DNA of 64,000 nt from Botryllus schlosseri (lineage: Eukaryota): positions 11,222,001 through 11,286,000 of the forward strand of contig CM119371.1 in the NCBI GenBank assembly GCA_051294905.1, in the 5' to 3' direction. Each line of letters begins with the position of its first letter. Position 1 is the first letter of the stretch. The notes below the pieces were generated by a model. The model had not been told where the DNA came from, ran no database searches, and saw only the letters and a list, made by a program, of their open reading frames with translations. This document shows positions 1,351-42,223 of this stretch, one piece after another. A program made the translations under genes and the position numbers.

Positions 1351-1941
1351 CTGTTTTACAAAAAATAAGGCTTTAAAATAATGATATGCACCAAGCACCG
1401 AAAATGTAATGGAGGGCACAAATCGACCTGTTACGATTGACAATACAATTAACTTTGTCAAGTGGGTCTCATACGAATTGCAACCAAGTTTTCATGCTTT
1501 TAAACCGCCTTTTTTAGTACTACTGTATTGTTGAGTGCTGATATTGTCAATATATTGACAGGGAGCCACTCTTTGGAGTAAGCTACCCAACTAGTATATT
1601 GATTACTTGCCTTATACTTACAGTGGTTCAATTTTAGACTACGCACCCTTTGAACCGTTTTTGAAGCTGAGATATAGTCTTGTCACTTTTCCCTTTTGAG
1701 GTTTTACCAAGTAGGATGTAGTATTTGAATAGATTTATATCACTTTCATAATTGAACTTGTCTTAACAAATAGTCAATGAACCCCCTATTTCATTGCGAC
1801 AAATGCAATAATCAAGTTGATTTTGGATGTCTTCAAATAGACACATCTACTTGTGTCCACTACATGACTACTTTAGTACCTCTGGTCCAAGGCTGATGAT
1901 TTCGCGGAGACAGAGAGCCTCACTAAGACATAAAGCCTCAC

Positions 1942-3435
1942 TTTTGTGAATTCCGTTCGTTGATTTATCAGAGAAAACGATTCCCGAGACAAGTCTTCTG
2001 ACCTCCGACCACTGTCTGGTATGAAGATACTCGTCGTTGAAGCGAGAGAATTCCTCCAAATTCATCTCTGTAACGAAACAAGCAGCGAGAAATTCCTGGA
2101 TACCTGGATAGGAGAAGATGAACTCGCAAATGTCTTTGTTGGACGGACGAATGTGAAAATCGTTGTGCGTAGATTCCGTCATCAAATATTGAACATCTCC
2201 TACGGGTACATCGAAGCGCTTCAAGTATCTACCAGAGAACACAGTCTTTCCTTCAGAAAGGCCCCTAAATGCCAGGGCTTTTAATTTGTGTGTTATCTGA
2301 GAAATCTCGTTGTCCGCGTTTTGAATGCTCGAAGCGCTTGGAAGAGAAGCCATGCCATTCAATGCATCGACTTGATCCGAAGTCCGTTGCTGATTCCGGA
2401 TGTTCGCCGTGCTATGAAGGTCTAATAATATCATATCGTATAGTTCTCTGAGTGCAGTGGGCGGAGGTCTGTTTGGATCACCTCCCATTACGATTGATGT
2501 TAGAACTAGGTAAGCAGGCGTAGATACTAGCTGGACTAAGCGCGGAGACGTAGCTTGGATATTTCCCCATACTTTCCCACCGTTCACGCCGAGTAGGGAT
2601 ATGAAAAGTCTCTCTGAGTCCTGCGCAGAGAAACCCTTCAGTGCGAGGATTCTGTCTGGCCGGGCCATCATCGGTATCTCTGAGACCTTTAGTTCACGTG
2701 AAGCTACGAAGATTTTTACATGACGAAGAACATTGCGAGCCAAGATGTTGTACATGATCGTTGAGGTGCTTGCGGTATGATATTCTTTTGTTTTCCCAAA
2801 ATACCGTCCTGCTTGCTCGAGCCCTTCGACATTTGAAATAGACTGTGCTGTAGGCTTGTCCGAAATTATCCGAGAGTCATCGAATAAGAAATCGGAAGGT
2901 TCGAACCCGTCAAACATTAAAACTGCTTCAGTTTGATGGTCAAAGAGATATCTATAAGCTCTATCCTGCTCATCTTTACTTTTGGAAAGAGAACCAAATG
3001 GAAATTCCGATAGTGTAATGGACGATTGTTCTTGGATATCCTTCAATTGAATGTAATGAACCATCTTTGACGACATATCCGCTTCCTCGGATGACGTTCT
3101 GAGCGATTTCTGAGCTATTCTACGAAGGAGAGTTGTTTTGCCCGAACCGGGTGATGCGACAATGAAAGTGACACCAACTGCATTAGATGGCCCTGGCGAA
3201 TTCATGGTGGGACTTGGTGCCATGACCTCATCAATTGTAATTGATTGACCCCTATTTTTCACTCCACCGTAACGACCCTTCAGCGAGCTGCTTACATCAA
3301 AGATCCTCATCTGTGGGTGAATTTCGATGTCACGTTTCTGCAGCCATTTATGTCTGATATTATCGAGGACTTGAATTGACGTCATTTCCCTGGTATTGTC
3401 GTTCACAATCTTTATCACGTTATTCCACTTTTCTT
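1942..3435 (-). CDS. NACHT-domain exon of NLR-like module 1
   Basis: Walker A-like FIVASPGSGKTT, Walker B region VLMFDG, YNILARN..KIFVASRE and HD1/WH motif IQEFLAACF. Acceptor TTGCAG at 3436, donor GTGAGG at 1941; 1494 nt, phase 1-1; collinear with the 22644-24080 exon. Confidence 0.88.
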
Positions 3436-3479
3436 CTGCAATTATTTAGAACTTACAGTCCGTTTGACATACTGCCATG

Positions 3480-21669: not shown

Positions 21670-22618
21670 CAGTGTTGGGATCAAGTCAGTACCTTCGAGT
21701 CACGAGTCATCTCGAGTCATTGCACATTTTGACTCGAGTCAAGTCAAGTAAATTCGATTTTCAAAGGTGACTCGAGTCAGGTCAAGTCACTCGTTTTTTG
21801 GAAGTGACTCGAGTCAAGTCAAGTCAAGTCAAGTCGAGTCACGAGTCAAGTCACAATTCAAGACAAATTGAATTTTCGAAGTGTCAGTGACGATTCAAAG
21901 TCATTACATTTTGCTAGCTGTGTGAAAAACAGAATAATTTGTCATTTATCTTGCATCAAATAACTGATATAAAGCTTAATATGCATGCAAGAAGGCGTCT
22001 ATCACACACACGTAGAACCGCAAATATAATAAGCGACTAACTGTATAGCTATGCTACAGTATGTTATAATATCAGCCAATAGGCTCGAATACGAAGCCTC
22101 GAGGAGTTGTAACAAATTGATATGAATTTGAATCTTTAAAGTGGGTTGGTAAAGGTGATCACTGCGCAATGTTAGCACTGAGCCGTCCAAGAAACATAGA
22201 TATGTTAATTGCTATTGTATTCTTATTCTTATTCCACTACTACTATACTACTACGACAGCGTAAGCGTAACCTGTGATCTTTTCGTCTGTCGTCAATATA
22301 TTTGTGATGCAATAATAGAGGATCATTCAAACGTACATTCAGTGAATGCCTGGTTACCTTCACAAGTGACACAAGCGTATTGCGAACAATACGAACATAT
22401 GCACAAAATACATTGATTTGATTGATACCGTTTACTTGATGACTTGAAATTGACTCGTAAATTTTGGTCCGAGTCACGAGTCAATCCGCATTTTTGAAGC
22501 GCCGAGTCAAGTCAAGTCAAGTCATTTTTGCAAAGTGACTCGAGTCAAGTCAAGTCATACGAAAAAGTGACTCGAGTCTGACTCGAGTCAAGTCATGACT
22601 CGAGTCATCCCAACACTG
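21670..22618. mobile_element. hAT-type MITE with GACTCGAGTC/AAGTC repeats
   Basis: TIR CAGTGTTGGGAT / ATCCCAACACTG; perfect TSD CATCTAGT; starts 25 bp into the intron after NACHT exon 2. Confidence 0.85.
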
Positions 22619-22643
22619 CATCTAGTATAAGGTGATATCTGAC

Positions 22644-24080
22644 CTTCGTGAAGATCATTCTTTGATTTGGAGAAGACAATTCCCGTAACGAATCGTCGGA
22701 CTACTGACCAACGATTGTCGCGTTGATATCTGACATCGAATCGCGTGAATTCATAATATTCCATTTCGGATGCAAAACTGGCAGCAAGAAATTCCTGAAT
22801 ACTTTGATGGCAAAAAAAGAACTTGAAGGTGCCTTCCATTAAATGACGGCTGAGAAGATTGTTTCCCGGAACTTTTGTCATCAGATCTTTAACTTCTTCT
22901 GCTGAAAGTCCGACTTTTGCCAAGTCGGCATCGTAAAATATGAGTTTCCCTTCCTCCATTCCTTGATATGCCATTGCTTTCAATTTGTTGATTACAGCAG
23001 CAATTTGTTTCCGATTTCTGATGTTTTCTACGCTTTGAAGATTTGATATGATCCTGCTGTACAATTCCGTGATTGTTGTGGGAGGATCTCTGCACGGGTC
23101 CCTTCCCATCACAATAGCAGTTAAAATTAGGAAAACGGGTACGGACACCAATTGCAGTAAACGTGGTGACATGGTTTCGATTTTTTCCCATAGTTCTTTG
23201 CCGTTTTTTCCGAGCAGAAAAATAAATAGTATTCGGGCATCTTCACTGGTGAGACCATTCAAAGCGATGATTATCTGAGGTCGGGCCAACGCCGGCAACT
23301 CCGAGATCTTATATTCACGTGAAGCTATGAATATTTTGACATGACGAAGAATATTTCGAGCTAGAATGTTGTACATAATTGTCGAGGTACTTGCTCGTTC
23401 GTATTTCTTAATCTTTCGAAGGCGTCTTCGGTCAAAATCCCATGTTGCTTGATCTAGCCCATCAAAAATCAAAATGGATCTAGTTTGGTGACCAAGCAAC
23501 CATTCGTATGCCTGATCTTCTTCAGCTTCGCTTTGATATAGACCACTGAATAGAAAGTGGGATGGTTTGATAGATTTTTCCTCTTCGATATCCTTCAATT
23601 CGACATAGTGGACCATTTCCATTTGTTTGTAATTGTCCTTTTTCCTTTCTTGGCTAAGAGCTTGGAGAGCTATTCTTCGCGTAAGAGTCGTTTTCCCCGA
23701 TCCCGCCGATGCAACTATAGCAGTAAAACCAATCTCGTCATCTGGCACTAAATCTTGGAGATTCCATATTGATGCCATAAAATGGTCCGCATCGATCACT
23801 TTGTTATCATTTTGTTGCTGAGGTTGAAACCCGACTTCCTTGGTAAACTGATTATAGAAATCTTCCTGTCTTGATGCGTTATTTCTAGCGTTGTCATCCG
23901 AATATTCCGTTCCAATGTGACCTTTGTAATAGTCTCCGACGTCGATCTTCAGCATCTGGGGGTAAACCGCAAAGTTCGGTTCATGAAGCTTTTCGTACTC
24001 AAAGTCGACGAGTAGATTGACTGATGTAATTTTTTTGGTATGGTCGTTGACGGTCTTTATCAGATATTCTTCAGCGACTT
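22644..24080 (-). CDS. NACHT-domain exon of NLR-like module 2
   Basis: AIVASAGSGKTT, ILIFDGLDQ, YNILARNILRHVKIFIASRE, FCHQSIQEFLAA; TTGCAG acceptor at 24081, GTCAGA donor at 22643; 1437 nt, phase 1-1. Confidence 0.9.
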
Positions 24081-24151
24081 CTGCAACACATATAGTTATA
24101 GAACGCTGGAGTTAGGAGGGATATATAGGGAGGATATGTATGCCTATCTAC

Positions 24152-29699: not shown

Positions 29700-30717
29700 C
29701 TATAGTTCAATACGAGATAGAGGAGTTATTTTTTTTTAAATAATTGTGAAAATGGGACATTGTGGCGCTTGTCACCTTATCGGTCTGGTGCGCCACGACA
29801 GAAATGAGGCGATAGAAGTTCCGGCCGTACGAGAAGGTTATATTTGGTGAACTCAAATTTCAAGTTCAAGCAAAATCAATCAAATATGCTCGGTGCCAAT
29901 CGTATTTTGGGCATGCGAGGAGGAAGTGATCCCCATTCTCGGGTACCAGGCATAAGTCACACAAAGAGGAGTTAATAATACATTTGTGATAGCAGTGTTT
30001 CTACATGTAAATTTTGATGATTAAAAATCCTGACTGACTAAACTAGCAACCGCACATGAATAATATTAGGTATAGATGCCACCTATTAGATCAGGGGTGG
30101 GCAAACTACGGCCCGCATGCGGCTCTCCACACCGTTCTGTGAGGTGCGGGAGAGTCTAAAGAAACTTATTAAAATATTGATAAGATGCGTACTAAAAATC
30201 GAATAGGGACTTGATTAAATTTTGTCTTAGTAGATTTCACCATGATAATTCTAAAGCAGCGGTTCTTAAACTGGGGGACGCACCCTCCTTGGGGGCGTGA
30301 AAGCATCTGAAAGGGGCGCGTCGCTGAGCTCGACTAAAAAAATTTTCGCGCTCTGCGCGACTTACATCACACTAGTCATTGTTGCTATGTATTTAGTCTT
30401 AATTTCGTATTTAAAAATCTCTCATCCATAATCGTAAACTTCCATGCCATCAAACGATCCGTTAGGTTTGCTAGCATCCTGATTGTGTTTTGTGAAATGG
30501 TGATATGGGGTGCGCGAAATCTTAAACCATCATAAGGGGGGGGGGGGGGGCGTGTCCTAAAAAGTTTGAGAACCACTGTTCCAAGTTAAATACTTCCTAT
30601 ATTATCCTTTATGTTTAATTTTCGGCGCGACAGCCCCATCTCAAGCCCCACGCAGTTTGAAAGGAATCATCTGTTAAACATCACAGAATTTCTAAACGAG
30701 ATTGACCTAATTCGGAT

Positions 30718-30936
30718 TGTGGTGATTGTTGTGATTGTATAAGTGCTGATTACTGTAATTAGTTTACTTTGCTCTGTTCATTCCTTTCGTACCTCAGTTG
30801 CTTATATCTGTGTTGTCGAGTGCATGTCCTAGTTCCGTGAAGTTGATTGTAGCTGAATTTCAGTTAATAAAAACCTAGAAAGCTGTCAAGCAGTTTCGTC
30901 TTCGTCTACCTACGCTTTCCTCGAAAGGTCACCACA
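30718..30936 (+). repeat. 5' LTR
   Basis: Identical by eye to 34852-35070. Confidence 0.95.
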
Positions 30937-30937
30937 A

Positions 30938-30949
30938 TTTTATTAACTG
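30938..30949 (+). promoter_or_regulatory. Non-tRNA primer-binding site, complementary to LTR 30861-30872
   Basis: TTTTATTAACTG, 1 nt after the LTR, is the exact reverse complement of CAGTTAATAAAA in the LTR; no TGG start. Confidence 0.75.
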
Positions 30950-30972
30950 CTATTTACACAATCGACCCTTGA

Positions 30973-33900
30973 ATGACTTTCTCTCAAGAGAAGTATATCC
31001 GCGTGCCGGTTCTAGATTTATTACCGAGCTCTCAAGACTCTTCGAAAGTATTCAACCACTGGGACAAAATGTTGTCGAGCTTTATATCGGCTGCAGAGTC
31101 TTCTTTGCCATCGACCAGCAGCACGGACACTGGACAAGAATCTAGCAGTGGCCGTCCCGGGGCAGTTCTCGATAAGTTGGCTATTTTGATTGGTTATGTA
31201 TCGCCAAGCGTGTACGCTTTGATCGAAGATCATGGCACGTTCGAATCTGCCATGGCACACCTAACCAAGTTATATCGGAAGAAAAAGAACATCATATATG
31301 CTCGACATTTACTCGCAACTGCTAAGCAAGACTCTGGTGAGACCGTCGCTGATTTCTCACAAAAGTTGATCGCTCTGTCTCGTGATTGCAATTTTGAAGC
31401 TGTTAATGCAGAAGTCCATAAAATGGAGGCCGTGCGAGATGCCCTAATTACTGGCTTGCGGTCCTCTGCCATTAGATTGCGTCTTCTCGAACATGATGAG
31501 TTAACACTCGAAAAAGCCATGCAGATAGCAGACTCTCTTGAACGGGCGCAAGCGTTTTCCTCGTCCTATGAAATATCGCCTCCTACCGCCAACATGGTAC
31601 CGGGAAATCAGGAAATGCAGAAGACTTCACATACGCCTGATCAATCGCCTATGTTGTCCTGCAGCTCTGAATTGGCTGCATTACAGAAGTCTCCTGAAAA
31701 AAAGAAGTGCTTATTTTGCGGCGGTTTCCATACGATGCTTCGCAAGTTTTGTCCAGCCCGAAACAGCGAATGCTCGAGATGTGGCCGACGGGGTCACTTT
31801 GCCAAAGTCTGCAAATTCAATTTGGCTTCGCTAGCCGGTGTACCCGGTTCTTTGAGGCGTTCGACGTTGGAAGTTTTTGTTGCTGAGAGATTGGTCAAAG
31901 TACTTGTAGATTCGGGGGCATACGAATGCTACATTAGCTCATCATTCGCCAAAATTCTCAATCTCGCTCTTACTCCTCGGGATTGCACTATTACCCTTGC
32001 ATCAAAGTCATCTTCTGCTCGAGTTATTGGTCACGCATACGCGACACTTCGTATTGAAGATAAAGATTACGGCGCAACTCAATTTTGCGTCGTTGATGAA
32101 CTGTGCGCCGACGTAATTATCGGTTTGGAATTCCTCAAACAGCATAAGAGAGTTATATTTGAATTCGGTGGGCCGAAGGGAGATCTCGTAATAGGACGCA
32201 AGCATTGTGCCGTAGCTGCCGCTAAAGTGATTGATCCGCCTGAAATATTCAAGTTTGTCGACCCAGCTGTAAAGCCTGTAGCTGTGAAGTCGAGAAAGTA
32301 CAGCTCAGAGGATCGATCTTTCGTACGGAGCGAGGTGTCAAAGCTCCTGGATGAAGGCGTTATAGAGAAGTCGGTATCTCCCTGGCGAGCTCAAGTTTTG
32401 GTAACCAAGGGCCCTCGACATAAGAAAAGGTTAGTGATTGATTACTCGCGGACGATAAATCGATACACCCCTTTGGATGCTTATCCGCTACCAAAAATTG
32501 ATGACATTGTCAATGAAGTTGCAAAAGGTGTTGTTTATAGCACGATCGATCTCAAGTCTGCCTATCACCAGGTGTCTCTCTCTGCGGCCGACCGACCCTT
32601 CACAGCTTTTGAAGCTGATGGTTGTCTGTATCAATTTCGTCGCCTACTCTTCGGCATCACCATTGGGGTCGCTGCATTTCAGCGGTTCATTGATAAATTT
32701 ATAGCGGACAACCACTTGAAAGGCACAATAGCTTACTTGGATAATGTAACTATATACGGAAGGAATCAGAAGGAACACAATGAGAGGCTCTCTTCGTTCA
32801 TGTCCGCCGCTGATTCAACAGGTCTGACTCTAAATAAAAATAAATGTGCGTTTGGGGTTTCGAAGCTCTCACTGCTCGGCCATCTGATATCCCACAATGA
32901 TATTCGACCCGATCCGGATCATTTGCGACCCTTAACGCAAACGCCGGCTCCAAGCGATACTCGTAGTCTGAAGCGCTGTTTGGGCATGTTTTCGTACTAT
33001 TCAAAATGGATTCCGTCCTTTTCCGACAAAGTGAAGCCCCTATGTGAAAATGTCGTGATTTAATTATTTCAGTGCGTGTAGTTGGTAGATTCGTTCTCTG
33101 TATGCGTAGGATTATAGTATTTATATTTTATCTACACATAGTAGAACATGAATCCTATCATGGTTTTGATGGATTCCGTCCTTTTCCGACAAAGTGAAGC
33201 CCCTATGTGAAAATGTCGTGTTCCCCTTGCTTGAAAAACAGAGAAACGCGTTTGAAACGTTAAAACAGAATCTACTTCGTGCCTGTTTGAGCTGCATCTA
33301 TGATGACGAACCGTTTCAAGTTGAATGCGATGCTTCCGAAGTTGCGATCGCCTCTATTTTAAGCCAAAAGGGCAGGCCTGTTGCGTTCATGTCTCGAACG
33401 CTATCAAAATGCGAAATGAAATACCCCGCTGTAGAAAAGGAAGCTTTGGCCATTGTCGAGTCTCTTCGAAAATGGGATTATCTCTTGAACCGAAATGAAT
33501 TTAAATTGATAACGGACCAAAAGGCATTATCTTTCATATTTAGAAAAGACCATCCGAGTAAGATTAAAAATGCAAAGCTCACTCTGTGGAAACTCGAGTT
33601 AAGTCCGCTAAAGTATCAAATAATTCACCGCCCTGGATCCGAGAATATCGGACCTGATACTTTGTCTCGGGTTTGTTGCTCGTCCCCAGGCCAGCCACAC
33701 ATGAGCCTTCAAGAGATCCATGAAGCGCTGAGTCACCCTGGAATTCGACGACTTGATTACTTTGTCCGATCCAAGAATCTACCTTTTTCTATGGAGGACG
33801 TTAAAAGAACTTGTGCTAATTGTCAAATATGTGCTAAATTGAAACCTCGGTTCTTCATGTCTAATGAAACGAACAAGTTGATAAAAGCTACTCGACCATG

Positions 33901-34819
33901 GGAACGTATTAGCATCGATTTCAAAGGTCCCGTTGATGGACCCAGAAAGTTTGTACTTGTTATTATTGACGAGTACAGTCGCTTCCCATTTGCTTATCCT
34001 TGTCGCGACATGACGTCGTCAACGGTCGTCAATTGTCTCTCATCCTTGTTTTCGCTTGTCGGTGTACCGGAATATGTACACAGTGACAGGGGTGCCTCAT
34101 TTCTATCTAAGGAAATCACCGATTTCTTGACACGCAAGCGTATTGCCACCAGCAAGTCGACTCCTTATCACCCCACAGGCAATTCGCAATGCGAGAGGCT
34201 TAATCAGACTTTGTGGAAATCCGTCAAGTTGCTTTTGGAAAGTCGGAGATTGCCGGAGAGACATTGGGAATCGGTTTTGCCGGATGCTCTGCATTCCATC
34301 CGGTCGCTCTTATGCACGGCAACTAATTGTTCTCCTCATGACAGGTTCTTCAAGTTTGAAAGGAGATCCATGTTGGGCGACTCCATCCCCGACTGGCTTC
34401 TTCATGGCGGCACCGTACTTCTACGAAATTTTGTGCGGAACAAAGGCGACCCCCTCGTTAATGAGGTAGAACTATTGGATGCCAACCCTAAATACGCCTT
34501 AATACGTTACAGAAACGGCGTAGAATCAACGGTTTCCGTTAAAGATCTCGCACCCTACCCTGTTTCTACAAAGTCTTCTGAGGCGCTTGAAAGAAAGGAA
34601 AAAGAGTTTTCCTCTGTCTGCGATACAACGGAGCCGTCATCCGATGAACTTACCACCTCGTCCAGCAGCGAAAAAGATGGCGTTGCTAGTAAAACATTTC
34701 CTCCGCGTCGCGACGAAGTAGTGGAGCCCAGTAGCAGCGCAGATGTCGAGGAACCTCCACTGCGTCGATCCACGCGCATAAGGCGCGCTCCCGAACGTTA
34801 CGGGCAAGGGACCTCGTAA
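30973..34819 (+). pseudogene. gag-pol polyprotein, interrupted at 33058-33220
   Basis: Gag with CLFCGGFH..CPA..CSRCGRRGHFAKVC; protease VDSG; RT YLDN; RNase H ECDAS..EKEA..TDQK; integrase HHCC, SIDFKG, HSDRG, SQCER; no chromodomain. Deleting 163 bp joins the two ORFs in frame (1227 aa). Confidence 0.92.
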
Positions 34820-34839
34820 AAGCTAGTCCCTATTTTCTT

Positions 34840-34851
34840 GGTGGGGGTGAA
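34840..34851 (+). promoter_or_regulatory. Polypurine tract
   Basis: GGTGGGGGTGAA directly before the 3' LTR. Confidence 0.65.
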
Positions 34852-35070
34852 TGTGGTGATTGTTGTGATTGTATAAGTGCTGATTACTGTAATTAGTTTA
34901 CTTTGCTCTGTTCATTCCTTTCGTACCTCAGTTGCTTATATCTGTGTTGTCGAGTGCATGTCCTAGTTCCGTGAAGTTGATTGTAGCTGAATTTCAGTTA
35001 ATAAAAACCTAGAAAGCTGTCAAGCAGTTTCGTCTTCGTCTACCTACGCTTTCCTCGAAAGGTCACCACA
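34852..35070 (+). repeat. 3' LTR
   Basis: Identical by eye to the 5' LTR; followed by TSD CGGAT. Confidence 0.95.
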
Positions 35071-36004
35071 CGGATCACAAGTGTGATTTCAGATTGGCCA
35101 CTCAAGTTTTAATTATTTCAGTGCGTGTAGTTGGTAGATTCGTTCTCTGTATGCGTAGGATTATAGTATTTATATTTTATCTACACATAGTAGAACATGA
35201 ATCCTATCATGGTTTTGATGCTGTCGGCATTGTGTGTACTGGAACTGAACCAAAAGTGGAATTAGTAAATCTGTTAATAGATCGCTGCCCACAGATTCAA
35301 ATTTAAATCCTGTTCTAAGAATCGGGACAACCGACTTTCATCTTTAATAATATAAGCAAATTTATTTTATCCATGTCCGCACTAAAATCAAATACCAATA
35401 TTGCGTTTTGGTTTATAATCTCAATTTTATATAGTGCGGCGCGCGCATTGATTCAGACGTTGAATGCGGCCCGCGAGCTCAAAAGTTTGCCCACCCCTGT
35501 ATTAGATAGTAGACTTCACTAAAGATGGTGCGGGATAATTTTTCTTGCAATAAACAAATCAAATCATTGACACACCGTGTAAAAATTTTTTATTCAACAC
35601 TTTGTGCTTCGAAATTTTGAGATAATATGTATGAGTTGTTGTGTAGTTGGACAATCTGGTTCCAGAACATGTCGATCGATTTTAAGAAAGAAAAGAAAGT
35701 AGGTGGATACATTCATAAGATCATAAGATACATGATCGACATTAATTTTGAAAATCGGTTTGGCACATATAATACATACTGTATGCTATCTCCAGTGTAA
35801 ACAATTTATCACGAAAACCATACCCGTTATTGTTAGAATAGGTACGTTGTGATTGGGAGGATGGATTGTCGCAACAGAAAAGCTTATTATCTACCTTGAA
35901 TGTCTGTAAAAGCAGACGTGATGATCGACTTAGTCAGCGTTGATACTCGGGTAGAAGTATCCGTAACAGCGCATATCGCTAGTTAATTATATGTATAAAT
36001 CGGG

Positions 36005-36280
36005 GTAGCTGGATAGCGTAGCGGTATAAACCGCAGCTGTAACCAATGGGTTGCGGGTTCGAGTCCGGCCGAGGTCGACTCCAGAATTCCTACCTAAGTG
36101 TTGGAGGTTCATTGTGGCTCCTCCTCGCCATATCGTCAGTGTAAGCGGTGTCTTATAAAAGCCTGGAAATGGGCCGTGCTACAAGTCGGTAGCTACGACA
36201 TATAAATGACGAAATTTGGCCTGGTGTAAATGAAGTTGACAAACACCGTGAATATCGCAAACATAAATCATCGAGGTTTC
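36005..36280 (+). mobile_element. tRNA-derived SINE-like element
   Basis: Pol III A box TAGCGTAGCGG (36014-36024) and B box GGTTCGAGTCC (36056-36066); no convincing cloverleaf; 3' end approximate. Confidence 0.6.
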
Positions 36281-38532: not shown

Positions 38533-41500
38533 TTGTTAATATTACAATGGAACTGTCGTGGTATATACCGAAAGCTACCTGAATTTAAAAGATACATAAC
38601 GGAACTACCAACACAACCTGACATCATACTTCTCCAGGAAACGCATCTAATTGCGAATTATAAGCCGGTATTTCAAGGATATTGCATACTACGACTAGAT
38701 AAAACTGTACGCAGTGGTGGACTGGCAGTAATCATCAAACAGGAACTGAAGTTTACGCAATGTAATGTCACCAAACCCCCCGCTATCGATGTTCTTTGCA
38801 TTGATGTATCTGGAACTAAAATATGCAATGTATATATTGCACCAGATTCACCAGTAGACCGCAACACGTTTAGTTCATGGAGAACTTATCAAGAAAGGCT
38901 TTGATCTTCGGCGATTTCAATGCGCACCACTGGGCGTGGAGTGGGGACGTAACAAACAGACGAGGTACATACTTATACGATGCATTAGATAAATATACGA
39001 TCGTCTCTCTCAATATCCAGTCACCGACTCATTTGAATACAGCGTGCAATGCTGTACGCAGATGGTCGCTTATTGACCTATCATTAGCATCAGCGGATAT
39101 CGCAAACAAATGCTCGACCCACGTAACTACCGATGTTCTGGATAGTGACCACCTTATAGTGCTCACCACGTATATGTGCAGAACCCAGAGAGCGAAAATA
39201 AAGCCACCCAGCTGGTCACTCGGTAAAGCAGATTGGGAAACATTCAGAAATAATGTAGGTACCAATAGTCATTCAGAATCGAATGCTGGTATCGATGCCG
39301 TTGTAAATGAATTCACGGAAAGCATTCTCCATGCTGCTAGTATATCAATTCCTATGACTCGCAACCATCGGAAATCTCCGAATCCTTGGTGGAATGAAGA
39401 GTGCTCTAGGGCTGTAAGAAGGAAGAAAGCAGCATTTATGAAAATGAGAAGAACCTTTAACCAGCATGACATTCTTCAATTCAAAAGGGAACGTCCCCGA
39501 TGTAAGAGGGTAATATTGACGTCGAAGCGAGATTCTTGGAGGGCTTTCTGTGGAATCCTTGAAGCACGCGCTAATCTACAAAAGGTATGGAAAGTAGTTC
39601 ATTCAATTTCCAATAAGCATAGTCATCGTGGGGTACCTTCATTGAAAGTAAATGGTAATTTAACTACAGCCGACCATGAAATCGCTAATGAGATTGCTTC
39701 AACGTTCAAAAATGTAAGCAGCGATTCGAATTTCCCGTCGAACTTTATTGCAACGAGACAAAGTCTTCTTTTGACTGATTGTTACAGTGGCCCCGGTAAT
39801 GATCAACTTAATATCGCCTTTTCATTGACGGAACTGGCCATGGCTTTAAGAACTAAGAAAAATACGTCACCTGGGGGCGACCAATTATGCTATGCTATGT
39901 TCAAAAATCTTCCGCACCAAGGTTTACTGAGATTGCTTGAGATAATAAATTACTCTTGGTCAACGGGTACTATTCCGAAACATTGGAGTCATGCGGTGAT
40001 AATCCCAATCTTGAAGCCGGGTAAAGATCCCACCTCTGCCAACTCTTATCGTCCTATTTCCCTGACCAGCCATATGTGCAAAGTAATGGAAACTATGGTG
40101 GCGAATAGACTTTCATGGTACTTGGAAAAGAATGGATTACTACATACATCACAGTCCGGGTTTAGGAGAGGGAGACGAGCCCTCGATCACGTTCTTCGAT
40201 TGCATGACACAGTTTATCGAGCAATTAACAATGGACGGGTTGTATTAGCGGTTTTCCTTGACATTAAACGGGCTTATGACATGGTATGGCGTGATGGATT
40301 AATTTTAAAACTGAAACAAATCGGAATTTGTGGGGAAATGTTAACTTGGATGAAATGCTTTTTATCAAACCGAACATTACAAGTAAGGATTGGATGCACT
40401 CTCTCAGGAATCAATGAATTGGAAAATGGTATCCCACAAGGAAGTGTACTATCACCTTTATTTTTGCAATTATGAATAATGACCTTCCTCAAGTTATATG
40501 TTCCCAGCTTGGACTATATGCTGACGACTGTGCAATCTGGCAATCTGGGCTCAATATTATTGAGCCGACGCAAAGTATTCAATCCAGCCTAACTGCGATC
40601 TCCAACTGGTGTGCTAAATGGGGTTTTGTTATATCGAAGGAGAAGACGGTCGCCATGCTCTTTACAAGAAGGCGTAAAGTCACGATTCCTGTATTACGCA
40701 TTGATAATTATATTATCAATTTTGCGGACAATTTCAAGTATCTGGGAATTATTTTTGACAAGAAACTGAACTACAAGGGGCACATCGACTACGTAGCGAC
40801 GAAATGTGCGGGCCGCATCAATTTACTCAGAATGCTTTCAGGTACCACATGGGGAGCATCCAATAATCTTCTAGTTGTGCTCTACAGGACTCTCATCAGG
40901 TCAGTAATCGAATACGGTATGGAAGCATACTTCTTCGCTCCGAGGACATATCTGAAGAAAGTAGAGACTATTCGCAATCAAGCTCTACGTATATGTTGCG
41001 GAGCGATGGTCAGTACACCAATTTCTGTAATTGAAATTGAATTCAATGATATGCCTCTATCCCTACGGCACTTGTATCTGTGTTTAAAATATAAATATTG
41101 TCTCAGCACCCAACAAACCCACCCAACTAGTTCGATTTTGGAAGAATCATGGGAAGATATATACAGCTTAATAAATGAACGATTTTCAACCTTTCGATCC
41201 TTAACCAGTGGTGCTGACCTTCGTGATTTGCACGCAACTGGGCAAGTCATATTACCAATACCCCCGTGGATTGCTCAAGCACCTGATGTAGACTCATCAT
41301 TGACAAAATCATTTGGCAGAAATTCCCCTGCAGAAATTGTTAAGGTGACATTTCGGGACCATATTTTCTCGAACTACAGTGATCATACACTTGTATATAC
41401 GGATGGTTCGAAGACATTGTCAGGATGTGGTTATGCCGTATACATTCCTCGGCTGAATGTAAAACTGTCTGTGACGCTTCCTAAATGGTTTTCAATATTT

Positions 41501-42223
41501 TATGTAGAGTTGCATGCCATCAAAGATGCATTATCGTGGGTTGAAAGGAACACGCAGAGTAAAATTGCTATAGTAAGTGACAGTCTGAGTGCCCTAACCG
41601 CCATCGCCAATCATGGGTCGGTCAATGACTATGTTTTGAACGATATATTAGAATATATTGCAGAACTGCAAAATAACAATAAATCAATCACGTTCATCTG
41701 GATACCTGGGCATGCTGGTATTCGTGGTAACGAAATCGCCGATCAATTAGCCAAAGACGCTGCGTCAAGAAAGGATGAAGGGAACAATCACTTATTACCT
41801 CTGCGAGATGCATTGTCCGTCTTGAGACAACATTGTAGATGTGAATGGGATCAGATGTACCAAAGCACTGAGACCGGAAGAGCGTATAAGAATCTGCGAC
41901 CATCAATTACCGACGATATAGCTCAGATTGGAACACGGCGAAGAGACGTAATTCTACTTAGATTAAGAAGCGGCCATTGCAGACTGAATCAACATCTGCA
42001 TAAGATCCGCTGTTCTGAGACTCCACTATGTCAGCAATGTAATGCAGAAGAATCTGTAGAGCACTTTTTGTTACATTGTGTGAGATATGAACATCAAAGA
42101 AGACAACTACATCATGCTGCGCGAGTGAGCCGAATAAATTGGGAGCTGAAAGACGTTTTAACAGATCCAACGATATTGGATAATGTTGTACAGTTCGTGA
42201 TATCGTCTGGACGACCTATATAG
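38533..42223 (+). pseudogene. LINE ORF2 (endonuclease, RT, RNase H, zinc knuckle)
   Basis: ILQWNCRG, LQETH, GDFNAHH, SDH; YRPISLT, QSGFR, PQGSVLSP, YADD; YTDGS, WIPGHAGIRGNEIAD; CQQCNAEESVEHFLLHC. Frameshifts near 38875 and 40470. Confidence 0.93.

Follow-up and report, generated by a model that had tools for sequence, protein, structure and literature searches.

Complementarity between the primer-binding site and the LTR across an animal Gypsy clade outside the chromoviruses points to Tf1-like self-priming

A Ty3/Gypsy retrotransposon of Botryllus schlosseri was found to carry a primer-binding site (PBS) that lacks a TGG tRNA site and can instead pair with a stretch of the 5′ LTR of the same element. 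The paired feature is real and extends through the whole clade to which the element belongs; host tRNA priming is the rule for animal LTR elements. Judged from sequence comparison, Tf1-like self-priming from the 5′ end of the element's own RNA is probably the mechanism behind it.

The element (4353 bp, 30718–35070) was analysed within a window of 64,000 nucleotides (assembly GCA_051294905.1, contig CM119371.1, positions 11,222,001 to 11,286,000), to which all coordinates refer, and its self-complementary feature lies at the 5′ LTR/PBS junction. Assignment to the Ty3/Gypsy LTR retrotransposons was based on TG...CA LTRs, a target-site duplication (TSD), a polypurine tract (PPT) and the domain order protease (PR), reverse transcriptase (RT), RNase H (RH) and integrase (IN). 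Besides a Gag with two zinc knuckles, the frames code for protease, RT, RNase H and integrase; the RNase H domain was found by Pfam, the best PDB match was Ty3 RT, and the ESM Atlas returned generic Gag clusters only. No Rfam family matched the region 30600–36200 at E 1. Both LTRs are identical, which indicates a very recent insertion. The features, all on the plus strand, are as follows:

30713–30717 (+): left TSD, CGGAT
30718–30936 (+): 5′ LTR, 219 bp, TG...CA, same sequence as the 3′ LTR
30860–30865 (+): initiator-like TCAGTT, predicted transcription start at about 30861–30862 (from sequence and positional conservation in 23 families)
30861–30872 (+): part of R predicted to act as self-primer by pairing with the PBS (from duplex, shuffles and covariation)
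30866–30871 (+): AATAAA poly(A) signal within the paired segment; the 3′ LTR copy is at 35000–35005
30873–30889 (+): remaining R, about 17 nt, from the predicted cut to the poly(A) site, a stretch that minus-strand transfer would use (from three reads; cut placed by the conserved 3′ edge of the duplex)
30890–30936 (+): putative U5, placed by the poly(A) site and the LTR end
30937 (+): spacer A, 1 nt, between LTR and PBS
30938–30949 (+): PBS without TGG, complementary to 30861–30872 (from sequence)
30973–33063 (+): Gag-PR-RT portion of the polyprotein frame, 696 aa, whose stop lies within an insertion
31708–31812 (+): two zinc knuckles, a pattern common to tRNA-primed Mag-type elements of the same genome
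32734–32745 (+): RT catalytic motif YLDN in place of YxDD
33059–33171 (+): 113-nt insertion, same as the flank at 35108–35220, disrupting pol of the present copy
33170–34819 (+): RNase H and integrase portion of the polyprotein frame, 549 aa, without chromodomain
34840–34851 (+): polypurine tract
34852–35070 (+): 3′ LTR, 219 bp
35071–35075 (+): right TSD, CGGAT

The 113-nt insertion in pol is an exact copy of the flank beginning 37 nt past the 3′ LTR (35108–35220) and is bracketed by two copies of a 50-nt pol stretch (33009–33221); it is either a templated repair after insertion or an assembly error. The whole Gypsy element is nested in a non-autonomous DNA transposon (30092–35499) with inverted ends and an 8-bp TSD (TATTAGAT), which we take to be hAT-like.

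At the 5′ junction, the LTR-terminal CA is followed by A30937 and then by TTTTATTAACTG (30938–30949), the exact reverse complement of CAGTTAATAAAA (30861–30872). The original prediction, made from the letters of the window, had described this 12-nt match, and TCAGTT (30860–30865) and AATAAA (30866–30871) likewise lie where it had put them. Its statement that the PBS is devoid of TGG also held, and extends to the clade, with 0 of the 36 rows counted having TGG within 14 nt of the LTR end. The 11-nt pairing that it had derived required correction: the duplex measures 12 nt here and 12–19 nt in relatives, and the figure of 11 hinges on the predicted start site. Although the paired segment is 83% AT, 5000 dinucleotide shuffles of the LTR yielded no 12-nt duplex. 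The family itself was read at 30 loci of the 40 matches listed, with the PBS unchanged in 15 of 16 readable 5′ junctions. Three young family copies carry a change of the LTR segment in both LTRs that is unmatched in the PBS, two of them being G–U compatible.

Relatives were collected from the 495-Mb assembly by an RT search (150 of 151 matches listed, 51–100% identity), and 60 loci were taken across the identity range. A clean set of 34 elements, each with an LTR pair and TSD and with RT 51–98% identical, was compared for pairing of the PBS with the own LTR: a Watson–Crick duplex of 12–19 nt was present in 29, three further elements reached 12–17 nt with G–U pairs, one was shifted by 3 nt and one had no duplex. 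Among 13 family representatives, the letters of the PBS varied, the own LTR paired at least as well as the LTR of any other family, and the observed duplex length was reached by 0–1 of 5000 shuffles. From metagenomes, the best 80 of 560 relatives were kept, and 28 of these 80 had a repeat pair around RT.

A table of 23 families was then evaluated; it is a selected set, its 10 metagenome families having been chosen for showing the duplex. Each PBS in it pairs over 12–19 nt with the own LTR, which was strictly the best partner in 22 families and tied in one. Counted from the 3′ edge of the duplex, positions 1–11 were paired with the own LTR at 100% vs 66% across families, positions 12–16 at 83% vs 42%, and positions 17–20 at 29% vs 29%; at positions 6–12, three or four pair types occurred. 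The spacer between LTR and PBS is a single A in 21 families and 2 nt long in the other two. The paired segment is followed by G or A and then by C, C in most families. G stands at −10 in 21 families and A at −11 in 18, and positions −13 to −15 hold mainly pyrimidines, so that most of the 23 have an initiator-like YA(N)GT located 11–12 nt from the duplex edge. Pairing reaches 1–8 nt 5′ of the 11-nt stretch in all 23 families, and two loci (L115 and L118) share a mismatch at duplex position 14. L099 and L101, which share 98.5% identity across 4.1 kb, differ by a change in the PBS that is matched in both LTRs. Loss of the complementarity in relatives had been named beforehand as grounds for giving up the self-priming reading; the covariation within the genome and in metagenomes speaks strongly in its favour.

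Unselected loci were subjected to a blind scan for duplexes of 11 nt or more behind a CA. It was positive for 38 of 60 own-genome loci and for 33 of the 47 metagenome loci whose upstream DNA was long enough; L110, among these 33, resembles a chance hit. Several of the failures (22 of 60 and 14 of 47) were without LTR pair or had one mismatch. The controls comprised 40 other Gypsy loci of the same genome, 39 with an RT match and 34 with an LTR pair, whose families share 27–36% RT identity with the present element. Only 3 of the 39 were positive, over a span twice as wide and all three in flanking DNA, and the chromovirus reference elements gave no self-duplex of at least 10 nt in the blind scan. 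TGG was located within 14 nt of the LTR end in 31 of the 34 control elements with an LTR pair, and their self-duplex never exceeded 9 nt. Comparison of the PBS with 34 tRNA sequences of 4 isotypes only gave a best duplex of 4–6 nt, the TGG-bearing controls being likewise unmatched in that set. Both types of element occur together at L113:2807–10409, where an element of the self-priming type (13-nt self-duplex) is nested in an LTR element with a TGG site (self-duplex 4 nt).

Two single-cell runs were inspected for RNA of the family; a further run (X21) yielded no reads. Sense reads pile on U3 and span the integrase/PPT/U3 junction, so the 3′ end of the family is transcribed. A tails follow 30889 in three reads of one run, 18 nt past AATAAA, and the DNA at this point is not A-rich; a poly(A) site behind 30889 would give an R of about 28 nt, of which a cut at 30872 would leave about 17 nt. 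Some contigs end near 30855, but these ends were not taken for a transcription start, which contigs cannot reveal. Some sense reads (X23, X24) carry changes at 30869 and 30872, in or beside AATAAA, and some run through U5 (past 30936) into flank outside the element; a diverged LTR copy may have been read through after loss of its poly(A) signal.

Folding predictions were made for the leaders. The primer/PBS helix of 13 families had a predicted mean pair probability of 0.92–1.0 for a start at the full duplex and of 0.74–0.98 for the 11-nt start. A second helix of the Tf1 type, formed with the U5 end, was predicted for only 9 of 23 families, the present element not being one of them, so that a pairing of the bases after the primer with the U5 end, considered for this copy, was not borne out. 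The overall fold of the leader was no more stable than that of shuffles (z −0.68).

Self-priming as proposed here would begin with transcription from the initiator-like site near 30861–30862, after which the first 11–12 nt of the RNA would anneal to the PBS and the RNase H of the element would cut after 30872, at the conserved edge between AAA and RCC, to leave a 3′ OH. RT would then copy the spacer and U5 together with the ~17 nt left of R and transfer to the 3′ R. The primer would stay on the minus strand, and plus-strand synthesis would write its sequence back into the PBS; for Tf1, the primer is retained after priming. A retained primer that is copied into the PBS would keep LTR and PBS in step and thereby itself produce the covariation. 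In families like the present one, the duplex may also mask the AAUAAA of the 5′ end and leave the 3′ copy for use. A family-specific PBS that tracks its own LTR, 1–2 nt from the LTR end, is a prediction of a primer derived from the element's RNA, and the position of the initiator-like YA(N)GT, 11–12 nt off the duplex edge in most families, agrees with priming by the capped end. A single start at A does not account for pairing 1–8 nt beyond the 11-nt stretch; the extra pairing at 12–16 nt could stem from spread start sites or from use of the 3′ copy.

The latter amounts to a different route of self-priming, in which the 3′ copy of the segment (at the U3–R junction of the same or a co-packaged RNA) would pair with the PBS over long range and then be cut. 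As the two LTR copies are identical, sequence cannot separate 5′-copy from 3′-copy priming, and the covariation at positions 12–16 (83% vs 42%) favours the 3′ copy in covering bases upstream of the initiator start, which exist only at the 3′ end of the RNA. With a cut in the 3′ R, however, minus-strand transfer would presumably lose its acceptor unless another RNA took over, and the fixed distance of 11–12 nt between YA(N)GT and the duplex edge is at odds with this route. Moreover, the extension is not strict, given the position-14 mismatch shared by L115 and L118, and it could also arise if starts are spread and the primer is copied into the PBS. We regard priming by the 3′ copy as unlikely. 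A role of the pairing in hiding the 5′ poly(A) signal or shaping the leader, with priming by another RNA (a tRNA fragment or host small RNA) at or near the site, appears improbable as well. AATAAA or ATTAAA does lie inside the paired segment in 16 of 23 families, and the signal is apparently used at the 3′ end, but the other 7 families keep the full duplex without A(A/T)TAAA, the hexamer lying downstream of it in L070 and L080, so that poly(A) hiding cannot be the whole reason. The tRNA comparison, having covered four isotypes, leaves room for another primer; the PBS nevertheless varies between families such that no single host RNA fits, TGG is absent in 36 of 36 rows, and the duplex always begins at the point required for priming, 1–2 nt from the LTR end. 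Given the composition of the segment and a non-significant fold z-score, one could entertain that AT-rich sequence is complementary by chance or that one copy underwent a local inverted duplication. This reading is refuted by the fixed register and compensatory changes in 23 families from several sources, and both the shuffles (0 of 5000) and the absence of the duplex at the PBS of other Gypsy families stand against it; its probability is negligible.

Self-priming from the 5′ end of the RNA is thus retained as the preferred reading, and the placement of the elements bears on its origin. The main tree was computed from RT-RH-IN (610 columns, 32 rows, with 19 of 51 rows omitted) under LG+G4 without mixture, a model under which the long branches of the outgroup and of the stem of the present clade may mislead; a 51-row FastTree, for which 13 of 58 rows had been dropped beforehand as redundant or short, agrees with it. 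Reference labels (Mag-type, chromovirus) derive from PBS type, knuckles and Pfam domains rather than from named elements, and the chromovirus references are eukaryotic contaminant contigs in prokaryote assemblies that were not identified as Tf1 or sushi. Support was 100/100 for the present clade, 99/99 for the Mag-type and 100/99 for the chromodomain-type elements, with an unresolved backbone. The AU test rejected nesting in the fungal-type chromovirus subclade (L231/L233/L265; p 0.0002) and in one Mag subclade (p 0.001); it did not reject a sister position to Mag (p 0.445) or to all chromoviruses (p 0.057; 0.118 with one more row). Pol therefore forms a clade of its own, neither chromovirus nor inside Mag as sampled, and an earlier guess at the Mag C-clade was dropped after the tree had separated the clades. 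No chromodomain was found in the present element, three relatives or the Pfam lists of the 120 homologs listed, and six reference elements had one.

The original classification as a non-chromovirus element is accordingly upheld by an IN free of a Pfam chromodomain and by a Pol outside the chromoviruses (100/99). The epithet 'Mag-like' is apt for the two Gag knuckles, but RT-RH-IN places the element in a separate clade that is at most sister to Mag. As to an independent or wider occurrence of self-priming, the wider occurrence is supported, the feature lying outside the chromoviruses and being conserved in relatives. An independent origin is at most likely, since the sister position to all chromoviruses was not rejected (p 0.057/0.118). 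Among the homologs listed (120 of 829), the closest named hosts include Styela, Mytilus, Trichuris, aphid, psyllid, corals, Ciona, Trichinella and moths; a Ciona protein falls inside the present clade in the tree. Viral contigs searched with the RT of the element yielded no relative.

The self-priming mechanism has been described for Tf1, Tf2 and Tj1 in three sources (PMC10085805, PMC5341516, PMC4600332), which for the Tf1/sushi group (Tf1/Tf2 of Schizosaccharomyces pombe, Tj1, Tosmo1-3) likewise give a PBS complementary to the own 5′ LTR without a tRNA site. There, too, the primer is predicted at the 5′ end of the RNA and freed by RT, as is proposed here. Unlike that group, the present clade lacks a chromodomain or Tf2-type SH3, has a two-knuckle Gag and a duplex of 12–19 nt predicted from sequence, often contains the poly(A) signal in its primer segment, and is not nested in the sampled fungal-type chromovirus subclade (p-AU 0.0002). 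The three-duplex 'pretzel' described for the Tf1 leader in PMC10085805 was inconsistently predicted in the present clade. Self-priming had originally been taken as mainly a Tf1/sushi trait, which stands with an amendment: PMC6317226 lists Tf1/sushi and Tcn1 and proposes it, from sequence, for the plant Ty1/copia TAR lineage (Houba, Osr-1), outside Tf1/sushi. TAR elements are plant Copia and Tcn1 is a chromovirus, whereas the present clade consists of non-chromovirus animal Gypsy elements.

The likeness to the Mag lineage (A, B and C clades; Mag, SURL) comprises the two-knuckle Gag, a 5-bp TSD, short LTRs, a compact single frame and the lack of a chromodomain; two zinc knuckles in Gag are a hallmark of Mag. 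Mag-type elements of the same genome, however, carry TGG tRNA sites, share 27–32% RT identity with the present element and form their own clade (99/99). Cigr-1, the founder element from Ciona intestinalis, is about 4.2 kb long with LTRs near 245 bp and one frame of about 1200 aa, and its Gag resembles that of an echinoderm Mag-type element. Size, Gag type and the Ciona member suggest that the present clade is probably the Cigr-1 clade; alternatively, it may be MolGy1 or MolGy2. The Cigr-1 clade has also been reported from molluscs and annelids (PMC6238403, PMC8556966); the words 'PBS' and 'primer' are absent from the main text of these two papers, and the searchable files of their supplements contain no RT motifs. 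tRNA priming has been argued to have come late (PMC3601003).

A literature search, which took in PMC5006619, PMC6934838, PMC2774666, PMC3670739 and PMC8220671 and ran mainly outside subscription papers and without Repbase, found no report of self-priming for any animal Gypsy clade outside the chromoviruses. Self-primed Gypsy elements of the sea anemone Nematostella are reportedly described in a Repbase Reports note of 2007, which could cover the present clade. The mechanism is known already from Tf1, as is its prediction beyond chromoviruses; new are how deeply the pairing covaries and how far it has spread within a distinct lineage of animal Gypsy elements. In the most far-reaching reading, self-priming of the Tf1 kind would have arisen independently in a pan-animal non-chromovirus Gypsy clade (homologs in tunicates, molluscs, insects, nematodes and corals) whose Mag relatives are primed by tRNA; its primer would vary in length and often coincide with the poly(A) signal, its RT would alternate between YLDD and YLDN, and all this would be unpublished. 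Taken as a whole, this reading is put forward tentatively and with some doubt. If true, self-priming would no longer be mainly a trait of fungal and fish chromoviruses but a solution that recurs, and a widespread, recently active self-priming animal clade would bear on the question whether self-priming is ancestral or repeatedly gained. Such elements would probably lack the site used by 3′ tRNA fragments to silence LTR elements, and annotation tools that require a tRNA PBS for intactness may miss the clade. More than 20 natural covarying primer/PBS pairs with a conserved cut edge provide a set for studying the recognition and cutting of an RNA–RNA duplex by RT.

Several further observations were made on the RT motif, the genome and the window. 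The catalytic motif of RT was YLDN in 7 and YLDD in 6 of 13 own-genome families; 80 metagenome loci gave YxDN in 61 and xxDD in 15, with 4 not read. Young families with identical LTRs were found in both the YLDN and the YLDD state, and the literature search gave no match for a YLDN RT motif. No chromovirus was detected in the own genome: eight chromodomain loci from 150 matches consisted of three host genes and five loci (L214–L218) that presumably correspond to integrase-chromodomain genes of Polinton-type elements, and most chromodomain matches in the genome were multi-copy frames of ~350 aa. Many prokaryote assemblies contain full eukaryotic Gypsy elements including chromoviruses (L219–L265), that is, contamination. 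Within the window, a non-LTR retrotransposon is located at 38874–42223 (+), encoding endonuclease, RT, RNase H and a zinc-binding domain in two overlapping frames, and long, single-exon NACHT/winged-helix frames, resembling NLR-like immune genes, lie at 1868–3445 (−) and 22588–24111 (−).
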